From: a bacterium | GTDB taxonomy: Bacteria; Planctomycetota; UBA1135; UBA2386 | Reading direction: 5' to 3' | Assembly: GCA_030432695.1 (NCBI GenBank) | Contig: JAUILN010000010.1 | Span: 114,910 to 178,909, forward strand | Length of the DNA stretch: 64,000 nucleotides | Position numbers and translations under genes: made by a program | The notes under the pieces: generated by a model | Seen by the model: the letters and a program-made list of their open reading frames with translations, nothing else | The model's database searches: none | What the model was told of the DNA's origin: nothing | Shown here: in pieces, positions 3,805-42,625 of the stretch | How positions within the stretch are numbered: the stretch's first letter is position 1 | Layout: the number at the start of each line of letters is the position of its first letter

Positions 3805-5049
3805 GTGACCGGCCTGCGCATCCTCCAACTCCTCGCCCAGCGCCCGGGCCTGACCGGCTCGGGCGCGACCCTCGAAGCACTGACGCGCGAGCTGGAAGGT
3901 CTGGGCCACCGGGTCCACGCCGTCGTCGGTGTCCCCGCCGCGGATGCCCCGCCCCGGATCGCGGAACTCCCGGCCGAGCGCATCCACCCGCTGCGCTTCG
4001 GCCCCGGCGGCGACCTCCCGTTCCCGGTTCCGGGCATGAGCGACGTCATGCCCTACGAATCGACGGTCTTCGCGTCGATGGACGAGGACCAGTGGGCGAG
4101 CTACCGCGAAGCCTGGCGACACCACCTCGCGCGCGTCGTCGCCGACGTCCGACCGGACGTGATCCACTCTCACCACGTGTGGCTGTTGTCCGCACTGGTC
4201 AAGGACGTCGCCCCCGACACCCCTCAGCTGGTCCACTGCCACGCGACCGGCTTGCGTCAGCTCCAGCTCTGCCCTCGTCGTGCGGAAGAGGTCATCAGAG
4301 GAGTGCGCCGGGCCGATGCCTTCGCGACGCTGCAGCAGGAGCATGATGACCGGCTCACGCGCGAACTCGAGATCCCGGAGCACCGCATCCACCGCGTCGG
4401 CGCGGGCTACGACCAGCGGGTCTTCCACGACCGCGGCCGCGCGCCGTCCAAAGGCTCGGTGACCTACGCTGGAAAGATCGCGCTCGCCAAGGGACTGGCC
4501 CCGCTGCTCGACGCGTTCGAGCAGCTGCGCGCGAAGCACCCGAGCGCGCATCTGTTCGTCGCCGGCGGAGGTGCAGGGGCCGAGTCGGACGCCCTCCGCG
4601 CCCGCATCGACGCCGCCCCCTGGGCCACGAAACTCGGACACCTCACGCCCGACCAGCTCGCCGCCCAGCTCCGCACCACCGAGGTCTTCGTCCTGCCCTC
4701 GTTCTACGAGGGCCTGCCACTCGTTCTCGCCGAGGCCCGCGCCTGCGGATGCCGCCTGGTAGCCACCGCACTCCCCTCGATCCAGCAGCTCGCAGCCGCG
4801 TTCGGCGACGCGCTCCGACTGGTCGACCCACCGGAGCGGATCGACGTCGACCGGCCGGCTCCCACCAGCCACTGGACCTTCGTCCGCCGGTTGCAGCAGG
4901 CACTCGACGACTCCCTGTCCCGCCCCGCGGCCCCACCGCCAGACCCGGTATCCGGCCCTCCAGACTGGACTCGCGTGGCCAAACGCATTGCGGGGCTGCA
5001 CGCGAATCTGCTTCGCGAGGGACCCCAGCGAGGGCAAGCCACCGTCTGA
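3805..5049 (+). CDS. Glycosyltransferase family 4 (GT-B fold)
   Basis: N-terminus (M)TGLRILQLLAQRPGLTGSGA...GHRVHAVV matches the GT4 N-terminal pattern, and EGLPLVLAEARACGCRLVAT matches the GT4 catalytic motif. The track ORF starts at 3496 inside the repeat array; I prefer the GTG at 3805 because the repeat-encoded Arg-rich N-terminus has poor GC3. Confidence 0.75.
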   Translation: MTGLRILQLLAQRPGLTGSGATLEALTRELEGLGHRVHAVVGVPAADAPPRIAELPAERIHPLRFGPGGDLPFPVPGMSDVMPYESTVFASMDEDQWASYREAWRHHLARVVADVRPDVIHSHHVWLLSALVKDVAPDTPQLVHCHATGLRQLQLCPRRAEEVIRGVRRADAFATLQQEHDDRLTRELEIPEHRIHRVGAGYDQRVFHDRGRAPSKGSVTYAGKIALAKGLAPLLDAFEQLRAKHPSAHLFVAGGGAGAESDALRARIDAAPWATKLGHLTPDQLAAQLRTTEVFVLPSFYEGLPLVLAEARACGCRLVATALPSIQQLAAAFGDALRLVDPPERIDVDRPAPTSHWTFVRRLQQALDDSLSRPAAPPPDPVSGPPDWTRVAKRIAGLHANLLREGPQRGQATV

Positions 5050-6907: not shown

Positions 6908-7771
6908 ATGAACGATCCTACCGGGCGCTCGCCCGACGACGAGCCCGAGGACGATCGCTGGTCTCCGGTCGCGGAGGGTTGGGGCCGCTGGGCACCGACC
7001 CTCGACGCCGCGACCGCGGAACTCGACCGCGCGCTGCTCGACACTGCCTGTGTCGGCCGCGGCTCCCACGTGGCCGACCTCGCCTGCGGAACCGGTGAGC
7101 CGGCGTTCGGCGCCGCCCGGCGCGTCGGCCCAGGCGGTCACGTCCTCGCCGTCGACAGCTCCTCGGGCATGCTGCGCGTCGCCCGGATCCGCGCCCGAGC
7201 CCAGGACCTTCCATGGTTGGAGTTCGTCGCGGGCAGCGCCGACGCCATCGCCGAGCGCGGACCGACCCACACCGCGGCACTGTGCCGCTTCGGAGTGATG
7301 CACTTCGACGATCCCCCGCGGGTCCTGGCCACGCTGCGCCAGGGTCTGACCCGAGGCGCACGTGTCGCGTGCGCGGTCTGGGGCACCCGCGCCGAAGTGC
7401 CTTTCCTGCGCCTGCCCCGCGAGGCCGCGCAGCGTCACGGGCTGCTCGACCCCGAGCCGCCAGACGAGGCGTCGGGGCCGTTCCGCTTCGGCGATCCCGC
7501 AGCCGCCAGCGCACTCCTGACCGACGCAGGCTTCGACGAGGTCGGGGTGTCGACGCACAGCGTGCCCCTGCGCTTCCACGGCCCGACCGAGTTCGCCCGC
7601 TTCCTGCTCGACGTCTCGCAGCTGGTCCGTGATGCCGCGCAGCGTGCCGCACCCCAGACCAGGGAGCGCTTCCTCGCCGATCTGGCGGAGACCGCGCTGG
7701 ACCACGCCAGCGCAGACCACGGACTCTGTCTGTCGAACATCGCGCGGATCGTCCACGGGAGAGCGCCTTGA
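6908..7771 (+). CDS. Class I SAM-dependent methyltransferase
   Basis: Motif I VADLACGTGEPA. Good coding bias. Stop overlaps the kefG TTG start (TTGA). Confidence 0.8.
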   Translation: MNDPTGRSPDDEPEDDRWSPVAEGWGRWAPTLDAATAELDRALLDTACVGRGSHVADLACGTGEPAFGAARRVGPGGHVLAVDSSSGMLRVARIRARAQDLPWLEFVAGSADAIAERGPTHTAALCRFGVMHFDDPPRVLATLRQGLTRGARVACAVWGTRAEVPFLRLPREAAQRHGLLDPEPPDEASGPFRFGDPAAASALLTDAGFDEVGVSTHSVPLRFHGPTEFARFLLDVSQLVRDAAQRAAPQTRERFLADLAETALDHASADHGLCLSNIARIVHGRAP

Positions 7772-8340
7772 CCGACAGGTCCTCACCGCAACATCGGACC
7801 CAGGTCCTCTACACGCATCCCGCCCCCGCCAAGTCACGACTCAACGTTGCGCTGCGCAACGCCCTGACCGGGCTGGAGAACGTCACCATCCGCGACCTCT
7901 ACGCCCACTACCCGGACTTCGACATCGACGTCGCCGCCGAGCAACGCGCGCTGCTCGAGCACGACTGCCTGGTGCTCCAGTTCCCGTTCTACTGGTACTC
8001 GAGCCCGGCGCTGCTCAAGCAGTGGCTCGACCTCGTGCTCGAATTCGGCTGGGCCTACGGACCCGGCGCCGACGCCCTGCACGGCAAGCGCGTGATGCTT
8101 GCGGTCACCACCGGCGGCCGCGCCGCCGCCTACCGACCGGACGGCACCAATCGGTTCACGATGACCGAGCTGCTGCGCCCGTTCGAACAGTCGTTCCACC
8201 TCTGCGGAATGCACTGGCTCGAGCCCTTCGTGATCCACGGCAGCCGCGCGGTCACCCACCACGACCTCGAGACCGTCCTGGCACCCGCCTATCGGGCCCG
8301 CGTGGCCGGACTGACCCTCGACGACGGAGTCCACCGTTGA
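7768..8340 (+). CDS. kefG: Glutathione-regulated K+ efflux system ancillary protein KefG-like (NAD(P)H quinone oxidoreductase fold)
   Basis: NVTIRDLYAHYPDFDIDV, LVLQFPFYWYSSPALLKQWLD and RPFEQSFHLCGMHWLEPFVIH align closely with E. coli KefG. TTG start at 7768 is confirmed in the sequence. Confidence 0.8.
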   Translation: MTDRSSPQHRTQVLYTHPAPAKSRLNVALRNALTGLENVTIRDLYAHYPDFDIDVAAEQRALLEHDCLVLQFPFYWYSSPALLKQWLDLVLEFGWAYGPGADALHGKRVMLAVTTGGRAAAYRPDGTNRFTMTELLRPFEQSFHLCGMHWLEPFVIHGSRAVTHHDLETVLAPAYRARVAGLTLDDGVHR

Positions 8341-26418: not shown

Positions 26419-27204
26419 GTGACTGCACCACTCGACGACAGCCCGGTCGCTCCGGACATGGTGGAACGGCTCCGCAGCTTGGCTCCTTGGCATATGGACC
26501 TCGTGCTGCGGTGCGGCACACGGACGGTAGCCGGCAACCTGTGCAACTACGCGGAAGCCGACCACGAACACGTGATCGCGATCGACCCCGACGAGCTTCG
26601 CTCGACGCTCGAACACCTCTACCCCGAGGGCCTGGCTGGCAGGAGCTTCCTCGACGTCGGCTGCAATGCGGGCGGCTACAGCTTCCTCGCCCGGAGCCTC
26701 GGCGCGAGCCGGACCCTCGGCTTCGACGTCCGCGAGCACTGGATCAGGCAGGCCCGCTTCGTTGGCGAACACTGGGATGGTGACACCTCCAACATGCGCT
26801 TCGAGGTCGCCCACATCCATGACGTCGACCTGAGCGACGGCTTCGACCTGACGCTGTTCAAGGGCGTGTTCTACCACCTGCCGGCGCCGATCCACGCGCT
26901 GCTGCGGCTGTGCGACGCGACCCGCGACGTGATCATCGTGGACACGGCCTCACGTAGCGACATCCCCGAGAACGCGCTCGTCACCAACTTCGAGAGCCGT
27001 AGCCACGTGATGTCGGGTGTCGATGGCCTGGCGTGGATGCCCGGCGGACCTCGCGCGGTGATCGACATCCTGACCCACGCGGGTTTCCAGGACTGCCACG
27101 TCGCCTTCTGGCTGAAGGAACTGGCAATGGGTCCGCGCCCGGAGCTGGGTCGGTTCCGGGTGATCGCCGCGCGGCAACCAGGGCGTCTGGCGGCACCGAG
27201 CTGA
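26419..27204 (+). CDS. Class I SAM-dependent methyltransferase
   Basis: Motif I FLDVGCNAGGYSF. Start is GTG 26419 or ATG 26458. The region upstream in the track ORF has AT-rich third positions. Confidence 0.75.
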   Translation: MTAPLDDSPVAPDMVERLRSLAPWHMDLVLRCGTRTVAGNLCNYAEADHEHVIAIDPDELRSTLEHLYPEGLAGRSFLDVGCNAGGYSFLARSLGASRTLGFDVREHWIRQARFVGEHWDGDTSNMRFEVAHIHDVDLSDGFDLTLFKGVFYHLPAPIHALLRLCDATRDVIIVDTASRSDIPENALVTNFESRSHVMSGVDGLAWMPGGPRAVIDILTHAGFQDCHVAFWLKELAMGPRPELGRFRVIAARQPGRLAAPS

Positions 27205-27235
27205 GGATCACGGACCGCGGTGGCAGAATCCTCGC

Positions 27236-30200
27236 ATGGATTCCCGGACCGCGGCGAACCGGGCCTCGATGACCGACTCGAATCCGCTCGACAGACGCTT
27301 CGCCGCCTTCGTACGAACCGGCGATCCCGACCACCTCGCCGCGGTCTTCGACGTGGCGGCGCCGAGGCTGCTGCTGGTGGCGATGCACCTCACCCGCGAC
27401 GTCGCGGAGGCCGAGGACCTGGTGCAGACCACGTTCCTGGAGGCGATCCGCGGTGCGGACCGCTTCGAGGCAGGGCGATCGGTGCTGCCCTGGCTGGTGA
27501 CGATCCTGAGCAGGCGGGCGCAGGACGCGCGGCGACGGCGGCGCGCCGCTGGTGCGGCCGACGAACCCGCGGCCGACGCAGCGGAGCCTCTGGCCGCGCT
27601 CGCGCACGAGGAGACGCTGCGCGCCGTCTCGCAAGCCCTCGACGGACTGCCCGCCCACTACCACGAGGTCGTGAGCCTGCGCTTCGTGCACGGGCTCAAA
27701 GTGGTCGAGATCGCCCGGGCGCTGCGCCGTCCGGTGGGCACGGTGCAGGCGCAGTTGCATCGGGGGTTGGCGATGCTACGGCGAGCGCTGCCGAAGAGCG
27801 TGGCGCTGTCGATGGCGGCGCTGTTGGCGGGGACCGAGCGCGGGCTGGCAGCGGTGCGAACGGAGGTGCTGCGAGCTGCGGGCGCCGGACTGGTCGCCTC
27901 GACCGCGTTCGGCAAGCTCGTGATGTTGGGACTGCTCGTACTCGCCACTGGCGTAGGGTTGTGGTGGATGCTGCCGAGCAGCGCGGCCCCGTCGCAGCTG
28001 CAGGATCGGTCCGCAGCGGCAGGCCCGATCTTCGAAGAGTCGGATCCGCGCGAAGAGCAGCGCATCGCGGTGGCGTCTTCTGGCAGCACCGCTCCGGTGC
28101 ACGAGCGCACCGGCGATCCGGAACCCGCGGCCGACGATCCGAACGTGGTGCGCTTCTCGGGGCGCGTGGTCGCGGCGGAGTCGGGGGAGCCGCTCGAGGG
28201 GGTGGAGATGTGGTTCCGGCAGAGCTGGACCAACCAGGACTACACCTACATCTTCGGGGACGGCCGCTACTGGTTGGTCGAGGACCACTTCGTCACCGGC
28301 ACGGACGGGCGGTTCGCATTCGCCGCGCGTCTGCTCCACGAGACCGGATACCAGCTCAACATGCAGGCCGACCGGCGGATCGGCCGATCGGGGTCCATCA
28401 CGAGGCTCACCGACCCCCTCCATGCCGACTTCGGCGACGTCGCGCTCCACCGTGGCACGCGCGTCACCGGCCGCATACGGAACCGGAACGGCGAAGGGAT
28501 CGAAGCCGGCCTGCACGCCGAAGCCCCGCTCCCGGAACTCCGAGGGCTGCCCGGGCTCGACGGATTCGACCTGATCGGGATCGCGTGGTCGGACGACGAC
28601 GGCCGCATCCGCGAGGGCCACACGACCGCCGCGGGAACGTGGCGACTCCTGTCGACCAGCGGTGAGGTGCTCGAACCGCGCGAGATCGTGGTGCGCGAAG
28701 GCCAGGATCACATCGACCTGAGCGTCCGCCTCGCCACCGCCGGGCCGATCGCCGAACTCGCCGGTCGCGTGATCGATCGCGCGGGCAACCCGGTCGCGAG
28801 GCAAGCAGTGCGCGCCTGGTTCCCTGGATCCGAAGACGCCTTCGACTCCGACTCGACGGACGAGGCCGGCCGATTCGTGATCACGGCGCGGCGCGAGGAA
28901 CAGCTGCAGCCGTTCCACCTCGGGTTGGCGAAGGGCAGGATCTTCTCGCGCTTCGCGGGTGGCGCTCCGGAACGGCTGTGGAACTGGAACGGGAGCGAGC
29001 CCGTGTTGACCGCGCAGCCGGCGTCGACGACCGACCTCGTGGTCGTCGATGCAGCCGGCACACCGATCGAGTCCTTCGGCCTCTGGCTGAAGGCCTCCGA
29101 CGAGCGGCGCTCGTGCTATGCCCACTTCGGCCACCATTCCGAGGGTCGACTCTCCTTGCCTGGACTGACCGACGACGTGCTCTCGCTCACGGTGATCCCC
29201 GAGCGGCGCGACCTCCGCTTCGCCACGATCCACCCCACCGCGGAACCGCAACCGCGTGACTGCGACGTCGCTCTCGTCCGCGGATCACCGCTCGAGATCG
29301 CCCTGCGCAGTGAGAATCGTCCCGTCTCCGGCGCGGACGTGGCGATGACCAGAGTCTCCCCCGTACTTCGCTACCTGAGTGACGACTCGACGGCTCCGCT
29401 CGCGGACGCGCGCGCCTGGTTCCAGACCGGCATCGGCTCCGGAGGCCAGTTCGTCTTCGACGACCGAGCGACCAGCGACGCTTCGGGAAGGGCGACCCTG
29501 TTCGTCGACTCCCGGTGGGAGCCCGAAGAAGGCGAGTTCGCACTCGTGATCCAACACCTCACCCACGAGAGCCAGGTGGTGCCACTCAGCGCCGAGCAGA
29601 TCGTCACCGGACGCGTGGAGGTCGAACTCGTGGCCGGCGGGGCGATCCTCGGCAGGGTCGTGCAACCCGACCTCGCCGGACGCTTCGCGGATCGGGTCGG
29701 CGCCGGCCGGCAACGAGACGATGGGACCTTCAGCCGTCCAGAACACGGTGGCCCGCGGAACACGCCGGCGTGGTGGGCCGAAAGCCCGATCGCCGCAGAT
29801 GGGTCGTTCGAGTTCCGGGGACTGCCGCCGGGCCGCTGGAGGCTCTCGCTGGAGCGGCACGGCCGCAACTTCGTCCACCCGGACATGCCGATCCTCGACA
29901 TCGAAGCGGGCGACACGACGACGGCGATCCTCGATCCGACCTCCCTGGCACCCGCCACGGTGCGCCTCCACGTCACCTTGGATGGACGACCCGCTCCGGA
30001 AGGCCGCTACGCATCCCTGACCCTCCTCGAAGACCACCCCCTCCTGAACCTCACCAGCCTCGACTCCGAGAAGTTCGACCGCGACGGATCCGTGTGCTTC
30101 CTCGACGTGCCAGCCGGATCCTACGCGCTGTTCAGCGGCGGCGTCGTCAACGGCGTCAACGACCACCGCTACTCGGCAGACGTGATCGTGGTCGCGCCGG

Positions 30201-30484
30201 GTCACGATGTGGAACAGCGCGTCGACCTCCCGCGACGCCGGCTGACCCTGGACCTCCGCGCTGCCGACGGGTCACCCACCGGGCTGTGGTCCGGCGCACG
30301 CTACACGGGCGGCGCACACCCCGACATCGGCCCCGACGGCAGGACCTTCGCTCCGCTCCCCGGCTTCGACGGCGTCACCCTCCACCTCCCCCGCCCCGAC
30401 GGCGGCGCCCCCCTCGTCCTCGGCCCCTTCCGGATCCCGGACGGCCAGACCACCCACCACCAGATCGTCCAACTCCCCGACTGA
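27236..30484 (+). CDS. ECF sigma-70 factor fused to a transmembrane segment and large extracytoplasmic beta-sandwich domain (one-component transmembrane sigma factor)
   Basis: Region 2 DLVQTTFLEAIRGADRF. Region 4 HTH YHEVVSLRFVHGLKVVEIARALRRPVGTVQAQLHRGL. TM helix FGKLVMLGLLVLATGVGLWWML. About 850 aa of carboxypeptidase-regulatory-like repeats (FSGRVVAAESGEPLEGVEMW). Single uninterrupted ORF. Confidence 0.8.
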   Translation: MDSRTAANRASMTDSNPLDRRFAAFVRTGDPDHLAAVFDVAAPRLLLVAMHLTRDVAEAEDLVQTTFLEAIRGADRFEAGRSVLPWLVTILSRRAQDARRRRRAAGAADEPAADAAEPLAALAHEETLRAVSQALDGLPAHYHEVVSLRFVHGLKVVEIARALRRPVGTVQAQLHRGLAMLRRALPKSVALSMAALLAGTERGLAAVRTEVLRAAGAGLVASTAFGKLVMLGLLVLATGVGLWWMLPSSAAPSQLQDRSAAAGPIFEESDPREEQRIAVASSGSTAPVHERTGDPEPAADDPNVVRFSGRVVAAESGEPLEGVEMWFRQSWTNQDYTYIFGDGRYWLVEDHFVTGTDGRFAFAARLLHETGYQLNMQADRRIGRSGSITRLTDPLHADFGDVALHRGTRVTGRIRNRNGEGIEAGLHAEAPLPELRGLPGLDGFDLIGIAWSDDDGRIREGHTTAAGTWRLLSTSGEVLEPREIVVREGQDHIDLSVRLATAGPIAELAGRVIDRAGNPVARQAVRAWFPGSEDAFDSDSTDEAGRFVITARREEQLQPFHLGLAKGRIFSRFAGGAPERLWNWNGSEPVLTAQPASTTDLVVVDAAGTPIESFGLWLKASDERRSCYAHFGHHSEGRLSLPGLTDDVLSLTVIPERRDLRFATIHPTAEPQPRDCDVALVRGSPLEIALRSENRPVSGADVAMTRVSPVLRYLSDDSTAPLADARAWFQTGIGSGGQFVFDDRATSDASGRATLFVDSRWEPEEGEFALVIQHLTHESQVVPLSAEQIVTGRVEVELVAGGAILGRVVQPDLAGRFADRVGAGRQRDDGTFSRPEHGGPRNTPAWWAESPIAADGSFEFRGLPPGRWRLSLERHGRNFVHPDMPILDIEAGDTTTAILDPTSLAPATVRLHVTLDGRPAPEGRYASLTLLEDHPLLNLTSLDSEKFDRDGSVCFLDVPAGSYALFSGGVVNGVNDHRYSADVIVVAPGHDVEQRVDLPRRRLTLDLRAADGSPTGLWSGARYTGGAHPDIGPDGRTFAPLPGFDGVTLHLPRPDGGAPLVLGPFRIPDGQTTHHQIVQLPD

Positions 30485-34016: not shown

Positions 34017-35894
34017 TCAGTTCCTCTCGAGAACCCAGACCCAGTCGTTCCAGGTCGGGCTCGGCGCCGCCGGGACATTGCGGATGCCGCCACCCCAACG
34101 GGCCTCGGCCGCCCCCTCGAACACCCCGTCCCGCGGATTGAACCAGCGGCCGACGAAGCGCGCGTCACTCGGCTCCTGCCGCAGGTCGATGCGACCGGTC
34201 GTGGTCGCCTCCGGGTAGTAGACCAGATAGACGGATCCCGGCAGCCCGAAGACCTCGGCCTCACCGTAGTTGGAATGGACGGTCTCGTTGGTGACCAGGC
34301 CGTCCGCGGGAAGCATCAGCGGGAACGGGTACCGCTCCAGCAAGCTGCGGGCGTGCCGAGACTGCCGCCACATCGTGTCGCGCGAGCGAAAGTCCTCGAG
34401 GCGGATGTCGCCACCACCGTCCAGGACCGAGTAGTAGCCGCAGTACCACGACAGGTTGCCGCCCGACAACAGCACGTCCCAGAGCACCTTGCGGCGCATC
34501 TCGGCGTGGTTCGAACGCGACAGACCGATCAGCGCCGGACCCTGCTCGTCGACGTCGACGATCGCGTGGCGCCGGAACTGCTCGAACAGCTCGTGCGCCG
34601 CCTCGGTCGCCGGGTTGTAGTCGGCCCGATTGATCTGCAACGAGGCCGAGGTCAGCCACGACGAGTCGTTGGCGTTGGTGAGGATCTGCCGGTAGATGCT
34701 CTGGTCGTCCGGATCGGTGTGCACCGCCATCGGATGCTCGAACGACTGCCAGCGGCGGATCCACTGCGCGATCGCCTCGAGCTCGTTCACGGTGAACTGC
34801 GTGGTCGGCTCGGGCGCGTTCTCCTCGCAGAGGATCCACCGCAGCCCGGGATGGTGACCGAACATCGCCACCATCATCTTGAGGTAGAGCCGCCGCTGGA
34901 CCGACTGGGCTCCACCGAGCCAACTGATGTTCTCCAGCTCCCGCTCCGCCAGCACGAACTCCAGCAGGATGCCGAGCCGCTGCGCGTGCTCGAACACGGT
35001 GTCCCACTGCTCCATCCGGCCGACGTCGTAGTGGGTGACCTTGCCGAACTCGCTGCCGCTCGGATCGACGAAGGGGAACACGTCCTGACCGTCGCCCCCC
35101 AGGTTGTTGGCAAGGAAGTAGACCGAGTTCACCCCCACGTCGTGCAGGTAGTTGAGCGCGCCGACGATGCCCCGGCCGGCGTGAGGGTCCCCTCCGGACC
35201 GCCACTCGGGATCGCCCGGCCGCCAATCGGCCACGTGGTTCGGGTAGTCGTGCAGGAAGGTCTCGCCCAACGGGATGTTGCCCGAGTCGAACGCGCCATC
35301 GAAGCCGCTGTACGCCAGCAGGTTCTCGGGGCTATTGGTCCCGGTCTTCAGGAACCAGGTGCCATCGCGGTGACGTAGGTAGCGAGCGCCGACCGCCTCC
35401 AGCGGGCCATGTCGATGGAAGCCGGTCGCGGCGGGGTCCGGCATCGTCACCTGGAACAGCTGGATCTCGCCGTGCGGAGCGAGCGGCGTGCCCGGAGTCG
35501 CCAGTCCGGCGACGTTGAGGCGCGGCCCCTTCTCGAAGGACACGACCATCGCCCACTGACCGACCTCGTCGGGCGTGAACCGGACCTTCCAGACGCTGCC
35601 GGCATCTCCGCCGAGGCCGTCCGCGGCATAGAACCCGGGCGTGTTCAGGACGCGTCCGCTCGGCGAGACGAACCATCCATGCATCCTGTAGTCGAGGAAC
35701 GGGTGGTCGGGCGACGCGGTGGTCTCCGACAGTCCACCGGGCGCGCGCGCGGCGGTGGAGTAGGCGAATTCGATCGGTTGGAACGCTGCGACGAGTCGAT
35801 GCACGGCGCGACGCGGGCCAGGGTTCACCTGGGCGTCGACGGGGGAGAGGAGCATCGGCACGCCGAAGATCCCGAGGAGGATCGCGGTGCGCAT
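34017..35894 (-). CDS. Secreted putative glycoside hydrolase (DUF5060 N-domain plus DUF4038/GH140-like TIM barrel)
   Basis: Signal peptide MRTAILLGIFGVPMLLSPVDA. Domain architecture resembles GH140 apiosidase-like proteins. The track ORF upstream of 35894 is spurious. Confidence 0.6.
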   Translation of the reverse strand: MRTAILLGIFGVPMLLSPVDAQVNPGPRRAVHRLVAAFQPIEFAYSTAARAPGGLSETTASPDHPFLDYRMHGWFVSPSGRVLNTPGFYAADGLGGDAGSVWKVRFTPDEVGQWAMVVSFEKGPRLNVAGLATPGTPLAPHGEIQLFQVTMPDPAATGFHRHGPLEAVGARYLRHRDGTWFLKTGTNSPENLLAYSGFDGAFDSGNIPLGETFLHDYPNHVADWRPGDPEWRSGGDPHAGRGIVGALNYLHDVGVNSVYFLANNLGGDGQDVFPFVDPSGSEFGKVTHYDVGRMEQWDTVFEHAQRLGILLEFVLAERELENISWLGGAQSVQRRLYLKMMVAMFGHHPGLRWILCEENAPEPTTQFTVNELEAIAQWIRRWQSFEHPMAVHTDPDDQSIYRQILTNANDSSWLTSASLQINRADYNPATEAAHELFEQFRRHAIVDVDEQGPALIGLSRSNHAEMRRKVLWDVLLSGGNLSWYCGYYSVLDGGGDIRLEDFRSRDTMWRQSRHARSLLERYPFPLMLPADGLVTNETVHSNYGEAEVFGLPGSVYLVYYPEATTTGRIDLRQEPSDARFVGRWFNPRDGVFEGAAEARWGGGIRNVPAAPSPTWNDWVWVLERN

Positions 35895-36151
35895 GGAGGG
35901 TAGGGGATGGAGAGTCGTGAGGCGGGGAGAGCCTTGGTGGGTGGAGCCGCCGCTACGATTCCTTTCCACCCACCGGCTATCAGAATCGTCGGAAACTCCG
36001 AGTATGGCAAGCTCGGATCCGAGACGTCCAAAAATTGGCCTGGCCAATATTCGCGACGACACAGAGCCGCATACATCCCCGCAGCCGATAGAAACATCCC
36101 CCAATCAAGTCGTGGGCGGACACACCCCCCGGAGCGCCCGCCCCCGCCGAC

Positions 36152-36847
36152 TCAGCGCAGCGGCACGCCGCTCTCGTCGACAGGCACAGTCTCGCGCGGA
36201 GCGGTCACGATCGCGTCGACCTCGGCCTGGCTCAGAAACACCCCGAACCAGTGGAAGCCGCGCAGCCTCAGCAGCCCATCGAAGCTGCGCAGGTGGTTGC
36301 GCGAGCCGCGCGCCAGGTTCTGCCACACGGTCGCGAGGTCCCGGTTGTCGGTGCGAGCGATCGCGTGCTGCAGGTCGACGATGTCGAGGTCCTCGATGAG
36401 CGCCCCCACCACCTCGGCATGCAAGGGCGACATCCGACCGAACGAGACCAACATCAAGTAGAGGTCTCGGAAGACCACGTCGCGGTAGACACCGGGCTGG
36501 TCGGACGGCAGTGGATCAGGGATGCGGTAGCGGACGAGCATCGCGGCGACCAGGTCCATGTGCGACTGCTCGGAGTCGGCGATGTTGGCGAAGGCCGGAG
36601 TGCCGTGGACCTGGAACAGCGCCAGGTAGACGTCGCGAGCCAGCTTCTCCTCCTGACGCATGTGCTCCAGGTCGGCGCGCTCGACCGCGTCGACGACCTG
36701 CAACGGCAGCGACGCCAGGTAGCGGTCCAGCAACCCCTGGCCGTTGCCGCCGCCGCCATTGCCGTTGCCCGGCCCACCCTGCGCAACGGCGACGGGTGCC
36801 AGAACCAGCAGGATCCACAGGAGACGGACAGGGGAACGGATCTTCAT
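36152..36847 (-). CDS. Secreted DUF2202 (ferritin-like) domain protein
   Basis: Signal peptide, Gly/Asn linker, then HMRQEEKLARDVYLALF, which is characteristic of DUF2202. Confidence 0.6.
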   Translation of the reverse strand: MKIRSPVRLLWILLVLAPVAVAQGGPGNGNGGGGNGQGLLDRYLASLPLQVVDAVERADLEHMRQEEKLARDVYLALFQVHGTPAFANIADSEQSHMDLVAAMLVRYRIPDPLPSDQPGVYRDVVFRDLYLMLVSFGRMSPLHAEVVGALIEDLDIVDLQHAIARTDNRDLATVWQNLARGSRNHLRSFDGLLRLRGFHWFGVFLSQAEVDAIVTAPRETVPVDESGVPLR

Positions 36848-36993
36848 GGGTCACCTCGGAGTCGGTCGCCGGCGACGACGCCGGCTTCGTCCCCGAGCGA
36901 GGGCAACGGCCATGCCACCCCGCGATGGTGGAGTTCTTCGGCACCACCTTGCGCACTCCGGTGCCCGTCTGCGCAGGATGTGCGCACTCGCGA

Positions 36994-38370
36994 TCAATCC
37001 CGCCCCGACCGCTCGTCGCTGCGGTACTCCTTGAGCCGGTAGAGCAGCTTCCGGCGACTGATCCCCAGTTGCCGCGCCGCCGCGCTACGGTTGCCCCCGG
37101 TGCGACGGAGGGCCTCGAGGATCGCCGTCTTCTCGAGATCGGCGAGCGGTGCGGCCCACGAGGTCATGGTCTCCGCGGGAACGGACGCCCCACTCGACGA
37201 GCGCCCGCGGAGCGCCGGCGGCAGATGTTCGGCGAGCACCACCTCCCCTGCGGAGAGCACCGCGGCCCGCTTCATCGCATTGGCGAGTTCGCGCACGTTC
37301 CCGGGCCACGCGGCGTCGAGCAGCACTCGCTCGGCATCGGGCGACAGGCGCTTGCGCCCCGCTCCGGCCTCGACGAGGAACCGCCGCGCCAGCGGCAGCA
37401 CGTCCTCGGGCCGCTCGCGCAGCGGTGGGATCTCCACGGTCAGCACGGCCAGCCGGTAGTAGAGGTCCTGGCGGAACGAGCCCTCCTCGACCATCCGCTC
37501 GAGATCGCGATGGGTCGCGCTGACCAATCGGAAGTCGATCTGCCGACCGTTCGACTCGCCCAGCCGCACGACCTGTCGTGACTCGACGACCCGGAGGAGC
37601 TTGGGCTGTAGATCGAGCGCGAGCTCACCCAACTCGTCGAGGAACAGCGTCCCGCCGTCGGCCGCCTGGAAGCGGCCGTCGCGAGCCGCGCCGGCGCCGG
37701 TGTACGCACCCCGCGCGACACCGAACAGCTCGCTCTCGACCAGCGTCTCCGGCAATGCCGCGACGTTGACCGGCACGAACGGGCCGGCGTCGGCTCGCGG
37801 GCTCCAACGGTGCACGAGTCCAGCGAGCACGTCCTTGCCCGTGCCGGTCTCGCCCAACAGGAGCACCGGCACCTCGCTGCGCGCTGCGCGACCGAGCTCG
37901 CGTAGGACGTCGCGGATCAGCGGCGACTCGGCAACCAGACCGGGCGGCAGATCGGGCAGCTCGTCGGCTGGAGCACGGGCCACGACACGCCCACCGCACA
38001 CCCCGTCGAGCAGGTCCTCCAGGCTGGCGAGATCGATCGGTTTGCGCAGGTAGTCGAGCGCACCCAGTTTCAGCACGTCGACCGCGTCGTCGAGATCGGC
38101 GTGGGCGGTCATCACCACGACCGGCGGCAGGTCACCGCGCTCACGCAGCAACCGCAAGGTTGACGGGCCGTCGAGACCCGGCATCCGCACGTCGAGCAGG
38201 CACAGCGCCGGAGGGTGGGCTGCGATCTCCTGCAGGGCCGCGTGACCATCGTCGGCAGTGCGCACCTCGCAGCCGAGGTCTTCGAGGAGCCCCCGCAGCA
38301 TGCGGCGCTGGCCGGGATCGTCGTCGACCACCAGGATCGGCCCGCTGCGTCGGGTTCCGTGCCCACTCAT
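36994..38370 (-). CDS. Sigma-54-dependent response regulator (NtrC family: REC + AAA+ + Fis HTH)
   Basis: REC ILVVDDDPGQRRML...LLDVRMPGLDG. Walker A LLLGETGTGKDVLA. GAFTGA-like GAYTGA and ESELFG. HTH AARQLGISRRKLLYRLKEY. Confidence 0.9.
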   Translation of the reverse strand: MSGHGTRRSGPILVVDDDPGQRRMLRGLLEDLGCEVRTADDGHAALQEIAAHPPALCLLDVRMPGLDGPSTLRLLRERGDLPPVVVMTAHADLDDAVDVLKLGALDYLRKPIDLASLEDLLDGVCGGRVVARAPADELPDLPPGLVAESPLIRDVLRELGRAARSEVPVLLLGETGTGKDVLAGLVHRWSPRADAGPFVPVNVAALPETLVESELFGVARGAYTGAGAARDGRFQAADGGTLFLDELGELALDLQPKLLRVVESRQVVRLGESNGRQIDFRLVSATHRDLERMVEEGSFRQDLYYRLAVLTVEIPPLRERPEDVLPLARRFLVEAGAGRKRLSPDAERVLLDAAWPGNVRELANAMKRAAVLSAGEVVLAEHLPPALRGRSSSGASVPAETMTSWAAPLADLEKTAILEALRRTGGNRSAAARQLGISRRKLLYRLKEYRSDERSGRD

Positions 38371-39653
38371 GCGATCTTCTCCGCCATCCCGAACAGCTCC
38401 AGGAGGAAGCGGCTGCCATGCGGGCTACGCGGCTCGTAGCTCAGCGCGAAGCCGTGGTCGACCGCGATCCGTCGAGCGATCGCCAGACCGAGCCCGGAGC
38501 CGCCTTCCCGACCGCTGACGTACGGTTCGAACAGGGTCTCCCGGATCTCCGGCGGCACACCGGGACCGTCATCCTCCACCACGAACCTCCCGCCACCGTC
38601 CGACTCGAACGCGAGCCTGACATGGCCGCGTCCGCCGAGCGCACGCGCCGCGTTGAGCAGCAGGTTGAGCAGCAACCGCCGGAGCTGCTCGGGGTCGGCG
38701 TCGACGCTCCAGCCGGTCGGCACGTCGACCTCGAGACGTCCGCCGTCCGCAGTGAACTCACCTCCGCACAGCGCCGCGAGATCGGCGGCCAGTGCATCGA
38801 CCGCCACCTGCGCACGTCGCAGCGAAGCCGGCCGACTCAACAACAGGAACTCGTCGAGCCGGGCGACCAGGCGATCCGACTCCTCGACGATGCTCCGCGC
38901 CACCGCCGGTCGCTCGCCGTCGGGGACCCGCCCACCGTGCAGCCGTTCGGCCAGGCCTCGGATGACCCCGAGTGGGTTGCGGGTCTCGTGCGCCAGACCG
39001 GCGCCGAGTCGGCGCAGCGTCTCCAGCCCCTCCAGCTCGGTCCGGCTGCGGGCGAGGTCGGCGCGCAGGCGGGCGGCGCGGGCCCGCCACCCCACCCCGA
39101 TCCCGAACCCGGCCACCAACAACGAGAGGACCGCCGCGACCGACCAGCCCCGGAACCGCGCCCGCGACCGCGCCTCCCGACGCGGCTCGGGATCCAGATC
39201 GACCAGCAGCTCCAGCTCGGCCGCGAGTTCGACCAGGTCGGCGTTGCGGCGCCCGCCGAACAGGCCGAACCCCGGCCCCAGCGGACGCAGCGGCCGGAAC
39301 CGGCGGCGGAACCGCTCCGGTCCCTCACCGACCGGTTCGCCGCTCGCAGCGAGCGACCCGACCGCCGCTCCCGGCTCCCCGATCGCGATCCAGGCCACGT
39401 CCAGCACCTCGCGGGTCTCGGTGATCGCGGCCGCGAGTTCGCGAAGATCGGCCCGCCCGCCCCGGCACTCGCGGATCGCCACCGCCTCGGCCGCCCCGGC
39501 GAGCGCATCACCGAGACGGCTCTGCTCGGCGTCGATGCGCCGCAGCTCTCGCCGCACCGCGACGATCTGCCAGACCACGATCGCGAGCACCAGCGCCGAG
39601 ACCCCCGCCAGCAATCCCCAAGGTCGATCGATGGACCTCCCGTCGCCGTTCAT
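38367..39653 (-). CDS. Sensor histidine kinase (NtrB/AtoS-like)
   Basis: TM helix. H-box LAHETRNPL. HATPase G2 box GSGLGLAIARRIAVDHGF. ATGA overlap with the downstream response regulator. Confidence 0.85.
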   Translation of the reverse strand: MNGDGRSIDRPWGLLAGVSALVLAIVVWQIVAVRRELRRIDAEQSRLGDALAGAAEAVAIRECRGGRADLRELAAAITETREVLDVAWIAIGEPGAAVGSLAASGEPVGEGPERFRRRFRPLRPLGPGFGLFGGRRNADLVELAAELELLVDLDPEPRREARSRARFRGWSVAAVLSLLVAGFGIGVGWRARAARLRADLARSRTELEGLETLRRLGAGLAHETRNPLGVIRGLAERLHGGRVPDGERPAVARSIVEESDRLVARLDEFLLLSRPASLRRAQVAVDALAADLAALCGGEFTADGGRLEVDVPTGWSVDADPEQLRRLLLNLLLNAARALGGRGHVRLAFESDGGGRFVVEDDGPGVPPEIRETLFEPYVSGREGGSGLGLAIARRIAVDHGFALSYEPRSPHGSRFLLELFGMAEKIA

Positions 39654-41104
39654 CGATCGAGCAGCTCGACCGCGTAGCGGATCGGCACTCCGAAGTTGGA
39701 GCCGTCGAAGCCTCGGGTGATGGCGAAGTTCACGCCGAGGACCTTGCCGGTCGAACCGAACACCGGGCCGCCCGAGCCGCCGCTGGTGGTCTCCGCGTCG
39801 TAGACCAGCCGGGACTCGCGCACCTCGCTGAGCACACCGCGGGTGATGATCGGCGAGACCGCGCCGCGCGCCGCGAGGCCGTCGATGATGCGGCCCAGAT
39901 CACCGGCCGACGCCGTGAGCACCTCGCGCGCCACGGCGGGATCGGTCTTGGCGAGCAGCGCATTCACACCGGTCGGATAGCCGACGACCAAGACCGTCTC
40001 GCCGCCCAGCTCCTCGGCATCGCGCGCATCGACCTCGAGCACCGGCACGTCGGCGGGGACGTCGGCGCGGAGCACCGCGACGTCGATGTCGTCCCCGGGC
40101 CTGAGCCGGGTCGACGCCGGATCCACCAACAGCGGCGAACCGCCCGGGAAGGTCGCGCTCAAGGCCAGCATCTGCGGCTCGAAGCCGCGCTCGATCAGAC
40201 CGGAGAAGGTCTCGTCGGCATCCCAGGGCACGGCGACGTGGCGGTTGGTGACGATGCGCCCTTCGCCGAGGTGGAAACCGGAACCGGTGTAGTCGATGCG
40301 CAGCGGCTTGCCGGACGCGTCGGTCAGCACGTCGGCACCGGGACTGCGCGCCGCCTCGGGCAGCTTCATGCCCCACACGCCATGGATCAGACAGGCCGCA
40401 CGGCTCTGGCGGAGCAGCACGTCGCGGACCACGTCACGGACCGCCGCCAGCTCGTCGACCTCGGCGGAACGCTCGGCGAGTTCGACGCGGAGTTCGTCGA
40501 TCTCGGCCTGCAGCACCGGTCCGAGGTCGCGCTCGCGCAACTCGGCGAGCTCGGTGCGCAGGGCCTCGAGCTCCGGGCCCAGCCGCTTCGACGCCGAACG
40601 GCCGCCGCCGAGCCATCCGAACCCGAACCCCAGCCCGACCAAGGCCACCACGAGCAGCGGGAAGCCGATCTTCAGGGTAAGCGTCGCCTGGGTCAGCAGG
40701 TCTCGGACCAGGCTCTGTCCCGACGCGACCACCCCGCTACTGCGACCGACCGCCACCGCGTCCTCGACCATCCGCCGGACCGGCTTGCACGCGCGGCCAT
40801 TGCCCTGCCACACCCGGAAGCGGGCCTTCGGCCCCCCGACGCCGAACTCGATCAGGTCGCCGCTCTTCAGGATCGCCTCCTCGACCTGACGGTGTTCGAC
40901 GAACACCTGGCCACCGCGCGCCTCGATCAGGAAGTCGCAGCCGCAGTCGTCGAAGCGGATCACCGCGTGCTCGGCGGCGACCCCCGAGTGGGTCGGGAAG
41001 CGCACGTCCGCATCCACCGCCGAGCCGATGCGGATCGTCGGGCCGGCCGGCGTGTCGGTCCGGCCACGGCGCGAGCCGGAGAGATGCAGGAGCTGGGCGC
41101 GCAT
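39650..41104 (-). CDS. FHA-domain-containing membrane-anchored trypsin-like serine protease (S1C/DegP-like)
   Basis: N-terminal FHA (TIRIGSAVDADVRFP...GDLIEFG). TM helix. Coiled coil. Protease His GRIVTNRHV and Ser TTSGGSGGPVF. The stop overlaps the HK start. The track ORF extension to 41740 is spurious. Confidence 0.8.
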   Translation of the reverse strand: MRAQLLHLSGSRRGRTDTPAGPTIRIGSAVDADVRFPTHSGVAAEHAVIRFDDCGCDFLIEARGGQVFVEHRQVEEAILKSGDLIEFGVGGPKARFRVWQGNGRACKPVRRMVEDAVAVGRSSGVVASGQSLVRDLLTQATLTLKIGFPLLVVALVGLGFGFGWLGGGRSASKRLGPELEALRTELAELRERDLGPVLQAEIDELRVELAERSAEVDELAAVRDVVRDVLLRQSRAACLIHGVWGMKLPEAARSPGADVLTDASGKPLRIDYTGSGFHLGEGRIVTNRHVAVPWDADETFSGLIERGFEPQMLALSATFPGGSPLLVDPASTRLRPGDDIDVAVLRADVPADVPVLEVDARDAEELGGETVLVVGYPTGVNALLAKTDPAVAREVLTASAGDLGRIIDGLAARGAVSPIITRGVLSEVRESRLVYDAETTSGGSGGPVFGSTGKVLGVNFAITRGFDGSNFGVPIRYAVELLDR

Positions 41105-41140
41105 CGACCAGGATGCTACGGCCCGCGCTATCCTGCCGCC

Positions 41141-42625
41141 ATGCGACCGATCGGAGCCCTCCTGATTTGCGGCCTGCTCGCCGTCCTGCTGCCGGCCCAG
41201 TCGTCGCGCGAGCCCTTCGAGGAATGCTCGGTCGGCGTGGCCTGTGGCCGGGCCACAGCCGACGGCCGACCGCTGCTCTGGAAGAACCGCGACGCGACGG
41301 CCCGCGACAACGTGATCCGCGCCTTCGACGACGGGAAGCACCGATACGTCGCGCTGTGCAACGCCGGCAGCACGGGCAGCAGCGTGTGGGGCGGCGCCAA
41401 CGCGGCAGGGTTCTGCATCATGAACTCGGTGTCCCGCGACCTCGCGGGTGACAACGGCGAAGGGCCGGGCAACGGACCGTTCATGAAGCTCGCGCTGCAG
41501 AGCTGTGCCAGCGTGGAAGAGTTCGAGGAGCTGCTCGAGAGCACCGCGACCAGCGGGCGACGGACCCGGGCCAACTTCGGGGTGATCGACGCTCGCGGCG
41601 CCGCGGCCGTCTTCGAGACCGGCCATGCGCACCACGTCCGCTTCGACGCCGACGATGTGGAGTCCGGCATCCTGCTGCGCACCAACTTCGCGACCACCGC
41701 CGACGGCGACCGGGGCCGCGAGCGCTTCGCCAGGGCCCACGCGATCTGTCGGTCACTGCCCGGACCCGAGGGCCTCGACCACCGCTTCCTGCTGCGCCGG
41801 TTCCAGCGCGACCTGACCCCGCCGCCGAGCGCGCTCGCGAGCCAGGATGAACGACAGGACGTACGCGAGACGATCCACCGCCAGACCACCGTCGCGTCGA
41901 TGGTCTTCCACGGGGTCCGCGCCGACGAAGCGCCTGAGGTGACGACGATGTGGGCCGTCCTCGGTCAGCCGCTGTTCTCGATCGCGGTGCCCTGCTGGCC
42001 GGGCGAGGTCGGTGTCTCCCCGCTCCTCTCCGGAACCCGGAAGCAGCCGCGCAGCCCGCTCTGCGACGCGGCGATCGGCCTGCAGACGGGCTTCTACGAG
42101 GAGCCGCGCGATGCCCTTGCCGAGGCGAACCGCGACGACGAGGTGGCCGGCGCGGTGCGTTGGCTGCACGTCGGCGACGAACTGGCGGCACTCGGCAGGG
42201 AGCGGGACGCGGTCGAGGACGAGATCCTCTCGATGGTCGAGACCCGACGCACGACCGACGTCGAGCGCCTTCGTGCAATGCACGACCACGCGGCCCGGCG
42301 CGCGCTCGATGCGCTCCGCGCGTTCGACAGCCGCTTCGACCCCCTCGACGTGGTGCGGGTCCACGGCCGCATCGCGGTCGGCGGCGAGATCGAGGAGCCG
42401 TGGATCCTCGAGATCAACCACGCGCGGTTCCGGATCGCGGCGGAGAGCTTCGACGTCACCGTGCCGACGGCACCGGAGTACCGCCTCCGCGTGGAGCTGC
42501 CCGGGCATGCGCCGCTGACCAAATCCCTGCCGGCCCAGGACGTCGTGGACGACGCGCTGCAGGTTCCGACGTTGCGCCCGCGGGCGCTGCCGGAGCCCGC
42601 GCTCGGCACAGGTGGCAGGCGTTAG
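41141..42625 (+). CDS. Secreted Ntn-hydrolase family protein (choloylglycine hydrolase / peptidase C45 / NAAA-like)
   Basis: Signal peptide followed by CSVGVACGRATADGRPLLWKNRD, the Ntn nucleophile-Cys pattern C-[ST]-x...DG...G-[KR]-N-x-D. Confidence 0.65.
   Translation: MRPIGALLICGLLAVLLPAQSSREPFEECSVGVACGRATADGRPLLWKNRDATARDNVIRAFDDGKHRYVALCNAGSTGSSVWGGANAAGFCIMNSVSRDLAGDNGEGPGNGPFMKLALQSCASVEEFEELLESTATSGRRTRANFGVIDARGAAAVFETGHAHHVRFDADDVESGILLRTNFATTADGDRGRERFARAHAICRSLPGPEGLDHRFLLRRFQRDLTPPPSALASQDERQDVRETIHRQTTVASMVFHGVRADEAPEVTTMWAVLGQPLFSIAVPCWPGEVGVSPLLSGTRKQPRSPLCDAAIGLQTGFYEEPRDALAEANRDDEVAGAVRWLHVGDELAALGRERDAVEDEILSMVETRRTTDVERLRAMHDHAARRALDALRAFDSRFDPLDVVRVHGRIAVGGEIEEPWILEINHARFRIAAESFDVTVPTAPEYRLRVELPGHAPLTKSLPAQDVVDDALQVPTLRPRALPEPALGTGGRR

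Follow-up and report, generated by a model that had tools for sequence, protein, structure and literature searches.

The two-component system ZraSR has as its main target the adjacent gene of a small periplasmic protein, read from a -24/-12 promoter (PMC4987338). An FHA-FHA-trypsin protein of B. thetaiotaomicron, NP_811686.1, was listed in a 2008 survey of prokaryotic serine proteases, so that this domain combination as such was already known; the survey contains no functional study of FHA-trypsin proteins (PMC2605481). DUF2202 proteins have been described as ferritin-like, and our literature search found them mentioned only in passing, as accessory ferritin-like proteins in ferrosome (fez) clusters. 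Genes of comparable kinds lie side by side in a 64,000-nucleotide stretch of planctomycete DNA, here called the window (contig JAUILN010000010.1 of GenBank assembly GCA_030432695.1, positions 114,910 to 178,909). An initial annotation, made from the letters alone, had described there a three-gene operon encoding a membrane-anchored FHA-domain S1 protease, a histidine kinase and a sigma54-dependent response regulator, and had proposed a signalling protease that links Ser/Thr phosphorylation to sigma54 transcription. Comparison with related loci led us to a different reading, which we consider probable: two units that occur separately from each other in all related loci examined have been joined here, without dedicated functional coupling. 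Unit A, the conserved one, is by its sequence composed of a membrane histidine kinase, an NtrC-type sigma54 activator and a downstream DUF2202 gene. Unit B belongs to a large stand-alone family whose members have a degenerate FHA fold, predicted to be cytoplasmic, then one transmembrane (TM) segment and a helical stalk, and lastly an HtrA-like, PDZ-less protease domain that is predicted to lie outside the cytoplasm; our literature search found no study characterising this family.

The gene arrangement itself was confirmed. The list of open reading frames (ORFs) and the sequence both give three minus-strand genes with 4-bp ATGA overlaps (Table 1), and Pfam searches bore out their domain content (FHA plus S1-type protease, histidine kinase, sigma54 regulator). 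These genes and the divergent gene beside them are real genes, not chance ORFs, and the protease start at 41104 is supported by the N-terminus MRAQLLHLSG, which is common to 119 aligned homologues.

The protease family proved to be large, with 660 matches in a protein search and at least 585 confirmed loci among GTDB species representatives, mostly in Planctomycetota and also in Acidobacteriota, Nitrospirota, Gemmatimonadota and proteobacteria. The best 80 of these at least 585 loci were examined over 8 kb on each side, using the kinase, regulator, DUF2202, C45 and DUF5060 proteins of the window as queries. A kinase or regulator directly downstream of the protease was found in none of the 80. 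Kinase- or regulator-like matches occurred within 8 kb in 11 of them, the nearest co-directional ones 1.9 and 5.4 kb away, which is about what the abundance of such genes would lead one to expect. The kinase/regulator pair followed the protease in none of the three closest relatives either: P0002 (65% identical to the window protease) follows an ABC-2 transporter operon, P0004 (63%) follows a gene with a weak Cu-oxidase_2 match, and P0005 (60%) lies among genes without a Pfam match. Both units are present on one contig of the MAG (metagenome-assembled genome) GCA_016716265.1, where the protease orthologue P0004 lies at ~0.64 Mb and the module of kinase (P0123), regulator and DUF2202 gene at ~3.63 Mb, ~3 Mb apart.

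Clustering of the genes around the protease was at first swamped by spurious Arg-rich ORFs typical of 70% GC DNA and was redone with a GC3/GC2 frame filter. The most recurrent context then comprised 14 planctomycete loci (L005-L011, L013, L014, L017, L018, L020, L047 and L061) whose proteases are 43-46% identical to that of the window. A gene for a MinD/ParA-family P-loop ATPase directly follows the protease gene in all 14, with a median gap of 4 bp in the 13 clustered loci; a divergent gene for a stand-alone GAF protein lies upstream in 13, and a convergent gene for a canonical FHA plus GGDEF diguanylate cyclase comes after them in about eight. In so far as the protease family has a recurrent neighbour, this is a ParA/MinD-like ATPase, and homologues of the ATPase, the GAF protein and the FHA-GGDEF cyclase are absent from the window.

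On the kinase side, eight orthologous loci were compared (L088, L089, L170, L171, L172, L173, L174 and L175). The order kinase, regulator, DUF2202 is kept in seven; L174, the most distant kinase locus, has no called DUF2202 gene. An FHA-protease gene upstream of the kinase occurs in none of the eight. The ATGA overlap of kinase and regulator is retained in seven of eight, indicating that this junction is ancestral, and the protease/kinase junction is, among the loci examined, unique to the window. The comparative synteny that the initial annotation had named as a check therefore went against it, with no conserved linkage of FHA-protease and two-component system (0/80, 0/3, 0/8). A scan of metagenomes with the kinase alignment had to be discarded for synteny, as its patterns derived from the generic catalytic core and all 80 loci retrieved were unrelated kinases matching aa (amino acids) 170-424 only.

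Several of the orthologous loci have features of their own. In three of the eight, a small ORF overlaps the kinase start from upstream (L089:5375-6034, L170:4549-5025 and L173:4669-5004), in the position taken by the FHA-protease gene in the window. These ORFs are homologous to one another (E 1e-16 to 1e-33), their Ferritin, Rubrerythrin and DUF2202 matches are all sub-threshold, and that of L089 has a signal-peptide-like N-terminus; from their sequences they look like a second ferritin-like partner. At L174 a GGCAC-N5-TTGC element precedes the kinase gene itself (4940-4965), which suggests autoregulation there, and a 676-nt spacer past the regulator (7625-8300) holds two to three copies of a ~130-nt repeat instead of a DUF2202 gene.

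The kinase carries HisKA and HATPase_c domains, and hydropathy gives TM1 at ~aa 12-34, a periplasmic sensor of ~130 aa and TM2 at ~aa 167-191. Full-length orthologues are 35-51% identical to it and have the same two-TM topology and ~130-aa sensor, in which the motifs RECRGG and F-x-P-L-R-P are conserved. His222 of the H-box and the residues of the N, G1 and G2 boxes are invariant in an alignment of 24 orthologues. The regulator matches the Pfam families Response_reg, Sigma54_activat (E 1.9e-62), AAA_lid_14 and HTH_8, the last being the C-terminal Fis-type helix-turn-helix (HTH). It has the receiver residue Asp60, Walker A (173-179), GAYTGA (221-226) and the Walker B motif LFLDE (242-246); GAYTGA, a Phe-to-Tyr variant of GAFTGA, is also found in L175. 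By its motifs, the regulator has all the parts that an enhancer-binding protein needs. No rpoN gene was found among the ORFs scanned in the 64-kb window.

A search for -24/-12 sigma54 promoters before neighbouring secreted-protein genes had been recommended in the initial annotation, and such an element was found before the DUF2202 gene. Scanning the window for TGGCAC-N5-TTGC with one mismatch allowed gave two matches. One of them, TGGCATGGCCGTTGC, has one mismatch and lies on the minus strand, in the spacer of 146 nt that separates the DUF2202 ATG from the regulator stop; a match on the right strand of this spacer is expected by chance ~0.003 times (2.86 x 146/128000). All eight aligned loci (the window and seven orthologous ones) carry the form GG[CT]A[CT]G-N4-TTGC at a distance of 25-55 nt upstream of the DUF2202 ATG, and in the alignment of their upstream regions the -24/-12 element is invariant and the remaining spacer columns are poorly conserved. 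Further upstream in the window spacer stands TGCGCA-N5-TGCGCA, which starts 7 nt past the regulator stop codon and ends 53 nt upstream of the -24 GG. It is the sole exact occurrence of this pattern in the window, which also has a single cluster of three TGCGCA within 45 nt. Seven of the eight loci (the window, L088, L089, L170, L171, L172 and L175) have an exact pair at 53-76 nt upstream of the GG, and in six of these seven a third TGCGCA follows 12-15 nt below it; L175 has a run of three and a fourth 15 nt on. L173 has a degenerate pair 138 nt from the GG, and a further TGCGCA box downstream of the pair is present in all eight regions. Shuffling gave per-region probabilities of at most 0.002 (promoter motif) and at most 0.0001 (enhancer motif, a pattern drawn up once the data had been seen). 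The protein encoded behind this element matches Pfam DUF2202 (E 1.3e-44) and, in the Protein Data Bank (PDB), MJ0754 (3Q4N, E 1.9e-43).

The second one-mismatch match, TGGCGCCGCTGTTGC at 2379-2393 on the minus strand, is antisense within a subtilase (Peptidase_S8) gene and has no TGCGCA cluster; as a promoter it is most likely due to chance, 2.9 matches being expected per window. A sigma54 promoter before the protease gene, from which the operon would regulate itself, was likewise rejected, since the 36-bp spacer there offers only a GG-N10-GC with three mismatches and no TGCGCA cluster.

The model that these features support best is a circuit whose logic resembles that of ZraSR/ZraP. The kinase would sense a periplasmic cue through its ~130-aa sensor domain, for which metal or envelope stress is a guess, autophosphorylate at His222 and pass the phosphate to Asp60 of the regulator. 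The regulator would then assemble on the TGCGCA boxes that lie shortly after the end of its own gene and, using ATP, open the sigma54 holoenzyme complex at the predicted -24/-12 element (36903-36917), by which transcription of the secreted ferritin-like DUF2202 gene would be switched on. In this genome the protease gene appears to have come to lie directly before the kinase gene, and because of the ATGA overlap it is probably co-transcribed with the kinase and regulator of unit A. A role for the protease as a dedicated part of the circuit is not indicated, and the fusion may be incidental or at most lineage-specific.

The N-terminal domain of the protease was examined for its capacity to read phosphothreonine (pThr). 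Modelled alone, aa 1-100 gave an AlphaFold2 model with a predicted local distance difference test score (pLDDT) >87, and Foldseek superposed this model on the pThr-binding FHA domains GarA, OdhI, FhaA and EmbR. For GarA, OdhI and FhaA the TM-score normalised to the target (TMt) was 0.83-0.90, with a root-mean-square deviation (rmsd) of 1.3-2.1 A, so that on structural modelling the FHA fold is genuine. Canonical FHA domains contact pThr through the Arg of Gly-Arg in the beta3-beta4 loop, the Ser of Ser-x-x-His between beta4 and beta5, and the Asn of Asn-Gly between beta6 and beta7. With the register fixed by HMMER alignments to Rv1747 FHA-1 and Rv0020c, Arg follows the invariant Gly27 in none of 119 homologues (Thr in 73, Ser in 40, Ala in 5 and Cys in 1). 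Ser stands three residues before the invariant His46 in only 10 of 119, its place being taken by Ala in the window protein. The Asn of Asn-Gly is found in none of the 119, columns 64-66 reading D/E/G, then G, then Q/R/E/P/D/K, with no Asn among the listed residues. Only the structural Gly and His of the canonical positions are retained. Judged from these residues, the FHA-fold domain of the family cannot bind pThr in the canonical way and is best read as a phospho-independent interaction module; a widespread and highly conserved family that combines FHA fold, TM segment and HtrA-like protease carries a degenerate FHA domain.

Some further features of this part of the protein were seen. Within aa 1-106 (40787-41104), His7, His46 and Cys56 are family-specific and invariant or nearly so, as is an invariant CKP motif (Cys106-Lys-Pro) in the helical linker just past the domain; together they could form a metal or redox site. 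The Phycisphaera MAG CAZAMB01 holds two family members (L001 and L042), one full length and the other matching aa 148-482 only, from the TM segment to the end of the protease, which shows that FHA-less paralogues exist. Many Acidobacteriota matches likewise begin at ~aa 165-205.

In Pfam searches the full protease matches FHA at aa 24-88 (32.3 bits, cutoff 20.7) and Trypsin_2 at aa 274-458 (E 1.8e-15). Hydropathy reveals one hydrophobic segment, ~aa 142-168, as the sole TM candidate, and a signal peptide is absent, from which it follows that the FHA-fold end should be cytoplasmic and the protease domain extracytoplasmic; the charges on either side of the segment do not decide for or against this N-in/C-out topology. 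With 119 sequences as input, AlphaFold2 gave a model (mean pLDDT 90) that has a beta-sandwich at aa 1-99, helices at aa 109-139, a hydrophobic helix at ~aa 142-163, a low-confidence linker, long helices forming a stalk at aa 175-231, and a two-barrel protease domain at aa 237-484 that ends with a strand (aa 470-474) and a helix (aa 476-483). Where a coiled coil had been claimed, between TM segment and protease domain, the model gives the long helices of the stalk. A three-helix insertion at aa 380-412 (39867-39965) lies in the second barrel region and is conserved in the family consensus NALLAKA...LAxRGAISP.

The description of the protease as DegP-like holds for its fold only. Foldseek relates the protease domain to HtrA1, DegQ, Deg1 and AlgW (E ~1e-11, TMt ~0.7, 18-23% identity), and the catalytic residues H289, D341 and S444 are invariant in the 119 sequences; with this invariant triad and HtrA-like fold the protease is probably active. 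PDZ gave no Pfam match, and the chain ends at the protease domain in the model. The scores against TIGR02037 (Do/HtrA family, 33.9 bits, cutoff 416) and MarP NF033740 (32.6 bits, cutoff 250) are far below the cutoffs, placing the protein, on sequence grounds, outside the HtrA family.

Several points weigh against two units joined without dedicated coupling. The ATGA overlap and the lack of a spacer for a separate kinase promoter make a single transcript very likely, and the operon claim is in that respect plausible for this genome; to belong to one operon is in itself some evidence, if weak, of a shared function. A periplasmic HtrA-like protease in an envelope-stress circuit has a precedent in DegP of the Cpx response. 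FHA domains can bind partners without phosphate, so that loss of the pThr residues need not make the domain inert. All genomes compared lie outside the genus, the closest protease being 65% and the closest kinase 51% identical, and the binding of the regulator and the dependence on sigma54 are matters that we infer from sequence. One rival reading is that the protease was recruited for function in this lineage, being co-expressed with the kinase and acting in the periplasm on the same circuit. It might act on the DUF2202 protein, on the sensor domain of the kinase or on envelope proteins that are damaged, in parallel to the degradation of CpxP by DegP. The overlap fits this idea, as do the intact catalytic triad, a protease domain predicted to be extracytoplasmic (like the kinase sensor domain and the DUF2202 protein) and a two-component system that regulates a periplasmic protein, as ZraSR does with ZraP (PMC4987338). 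The same linkage is, however, found at no other locus, the family's recurrent partner is the ParA/MinD-like ATPase and not a two-component system, and neither a sigma54 promoter nor a TGCGCA cluster precedes the protease gene; we consider recruitment unlikely. A more elaborate form of it, in which a ZraSR-like sigma54 circuit captured the protease as a proteolytic arm, perhaps cleaving DUF2202 or the kinase sensor in the manner of DegP and CpxP, while the phospho-independent FHA fold passes a cytoplasmic input across the membrane, is to us quite unlikely.

Another possibility is adjacency without shared transcription: kinase and regulator would have their promoter within the 3' portion of the protease gene, and the overlap would be a by-product of rearrangement. 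Unit A works without the protease everywhere else, and the kinase begins with MNGDGRSIDRPW..., an N-terminus that exceeds those of the orthologues in length and does not resemble them, as would fit a new start made at the junction. Against this, 4-bp overlaps usually mark co-transcribed genes, and a scan of 35800-42000 found no sigma70-like promoter or terminator-like site and left the operon promoter unplaced, planctomycete promoters being poorly defined; we regard adjacency alone as very improbable. The proposal that the FHA domain reads pThr from a Ser/Thr kinase and signals via the protease to the NtrB/NtrC-type pair, and so to sigma54 transcription, can claim a genuine FHA fold, and the canonical FHA-GGDEF cyclase near the protease family in other planctomycete loci indicates that pThr signalling is present in some neighbourhoods. 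It meets with the absence of the canonical Arg and Asn across the family, with Ser in so few homologues, and with a linkage to the two-component system that is conserved nowhere; in addition, no Ser/Thr kinase (Pkinase) or PP2C phosphatase gene was detected among the window ORFs scanned. This model is extremely doubtful and, failing the comparison with related loci, should not be carried into annotation. The joining of two otherwise independent units thus remains the reading we prefer. The most useful product of the locus is a testable regulon prediction for an uncharacterised planctomycete two-component system, with enhancer boxes, a sigma54 promoter and a periplasmic DUF2202 target, and with it a first regulatory handle on DUF2202 (MJ0754-like) proteins.

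Table 1. Features of the locus (window positions, except for the last row)
Feature	Position	Strand	Remarks
FHA-protease gene	39650-41104	minus	484 aa from ATG at 41104; ORF list and sequence
Sensor histidine kinase gene	38367-39653	minus	428 aa; ORF list and sequence
NtrC-family sigma54-dependent response regulator (bacterial enhancer-binding protein) gene	36994-38370	minus	458 aa
ATGA overlap, protease stop/kinase start	39650-39653	minus	Sequence; seen in this genome only
ATGA overlap, kinase stop/regulator start	38367-38370	minus	Sequence
DUF2202 gene, predicted target	36152-36847	minus	231 aa; N-terminal signal-peptide-like segment
Predicted enhancer (upstream activating sequence, UAS), TGCGCA boxes	36950-36986	not assigned	Pair 36970-36986; third box 36950-36955
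Predicted sigma54 -24/-12 element TGGCATGGCCGTTGC	36903-36917	minus	55 nt upstream of DUF2202 ATG
Example of the ParA/GAF/FHA-GGDEF context of the protease family	L010: 6673-7167, 8001-9425, 9429-10520, 10818-12023		

The divergent gene starts at 41141, as had been noted, and its spacer to the protease start is 36 bp (41105-41140), which means that a promoter of either gene must overlap the coding sequence of the other; no promoter could be placed in the region between them. Its assignment to the Ntn hydrolases is weak: the Pfam AAT score is just above the cutoff (24.2 against 23.2 bits) and that for the NCBIfam C45 proenzyme subfamily below it (53 against 85 bits), consistent with a weak C45/AAT-type member. 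The product of this gene (41105-42625 region) has a signal-peptide-like N-terminus followed by a Cys.

The window has a GC content of ~70% and carries typical planctomycete genes (PSCyt1, PSCyt2, PSD1 and DUF1501), and protein searches placed the relatives of its proteins in Planctomycetota MAGs and Saltatorellus ferox, which carries a kinase of this family. GC3 is 0.86-0.91 across all genes of the locus with no compositional break, and a recent foreign origin of the protease gene is unsupported given this uniformity. An anti-phage defence system was also rejected: PADLOC assigned no defence system to the locus, its matches being only weak and generic (protease and AAA+). Elsewhere in the window, a 1106-codon stop-to-stop frame at 27164-30484 has N-terminal ECF-type Sigma70_r2 and r4 domains, and CarboxypepD_reg matches it weakly near aa 877-901. 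The frame holds either a sigma factor gene and, behind it, another gene in phase, or one fusion of unusual length.

Set beside known systems, the locus leaves the understanding of the system classes concerned unchanged. Kinase and regulator are, from their domains and scores, of the NtrB/NtrC-ZraSR-AtoSC class and equivalogs of no named system. Like ZraS/ZraR/ZraP, the sigma54-dependent system for zinc and envelope stress in E. coli and Salmonella, they pair a membrane kinase that has a periplasmic sensor with an NtrC-family sigma54 activator, and an adjacent periplasmic protein gene behind a -24/-12 promoter is the predicted main target. ZraS is the best NCBIfam match of the kinase, yet the scores for ZraS (130 bits, cutoff 479) and ZraR (349 bits, cutoff 760) fall far short of equivalog level, and the sensor domain has no sequence relative in the PDB. 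ZraP is a CpxP-family protein, whereas the target here is a DUF2202 ferritin-like homologue of MJ0754; the ZraP gene is divergent, the DUF2202 gene tandem and downstream; and no sigma54 element was found before the operon itself within the window. The architecture of NtrB/NtrC and AtoS/AtoC is also that of the pair: its kinase has HisKA and HATPase_c, and its regulator a receiver (REC), an AAA+ sigma54 domain and HTH_8. No models score higher against the regulator than AtoC (393 bits, equivalog cutoff 714) and NtrC (377 bits, cutoff 559), yet both stay below their cutoffs. The window kinase, with two TM segments and a periplasmic domain, departs from NtrB, a cytoplasmic protein, and the target gene has no connection with nitrogen or acetoacetate metabolism.

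The protease shares with HtrA, DegP and DegS (S1C) the protease fold, the His-Asp-Ser triad and the GGSGGP motif, and with DegS an N-terminal membrane anchor with the protease domain outside. It differs from HtrA proteins in the missing PDZ and the low Do-family score given above, in the helical insertion, and in two parts that they lack, the ~140-aa FHA-fold domain in the cytoplasm and the helical stalk. The succession of cytoplasmic FHA fold, one TM segment and extracytoplasmic part is that of YscD/EscD-type scaffolds, and there is a weak match to Pfam Yop-YscD_cpl (22.3 bits, below the gathering score of 33.2); to our knowledge, YscD-type domains likewise lack the canonical pThr residues. 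Unlike in YscD, the closest structures are the pThr-binding FHA domains GarA, OdhI and FhaA, and the extracytoplasmic part is a protease and not a secretion-system ring domain. Compared with the FHA-FHA-trypsin protein of the 2008 survey, which has two FHA domains, the window family has one degenerate FHA domain together with a TM segment and a stalk.

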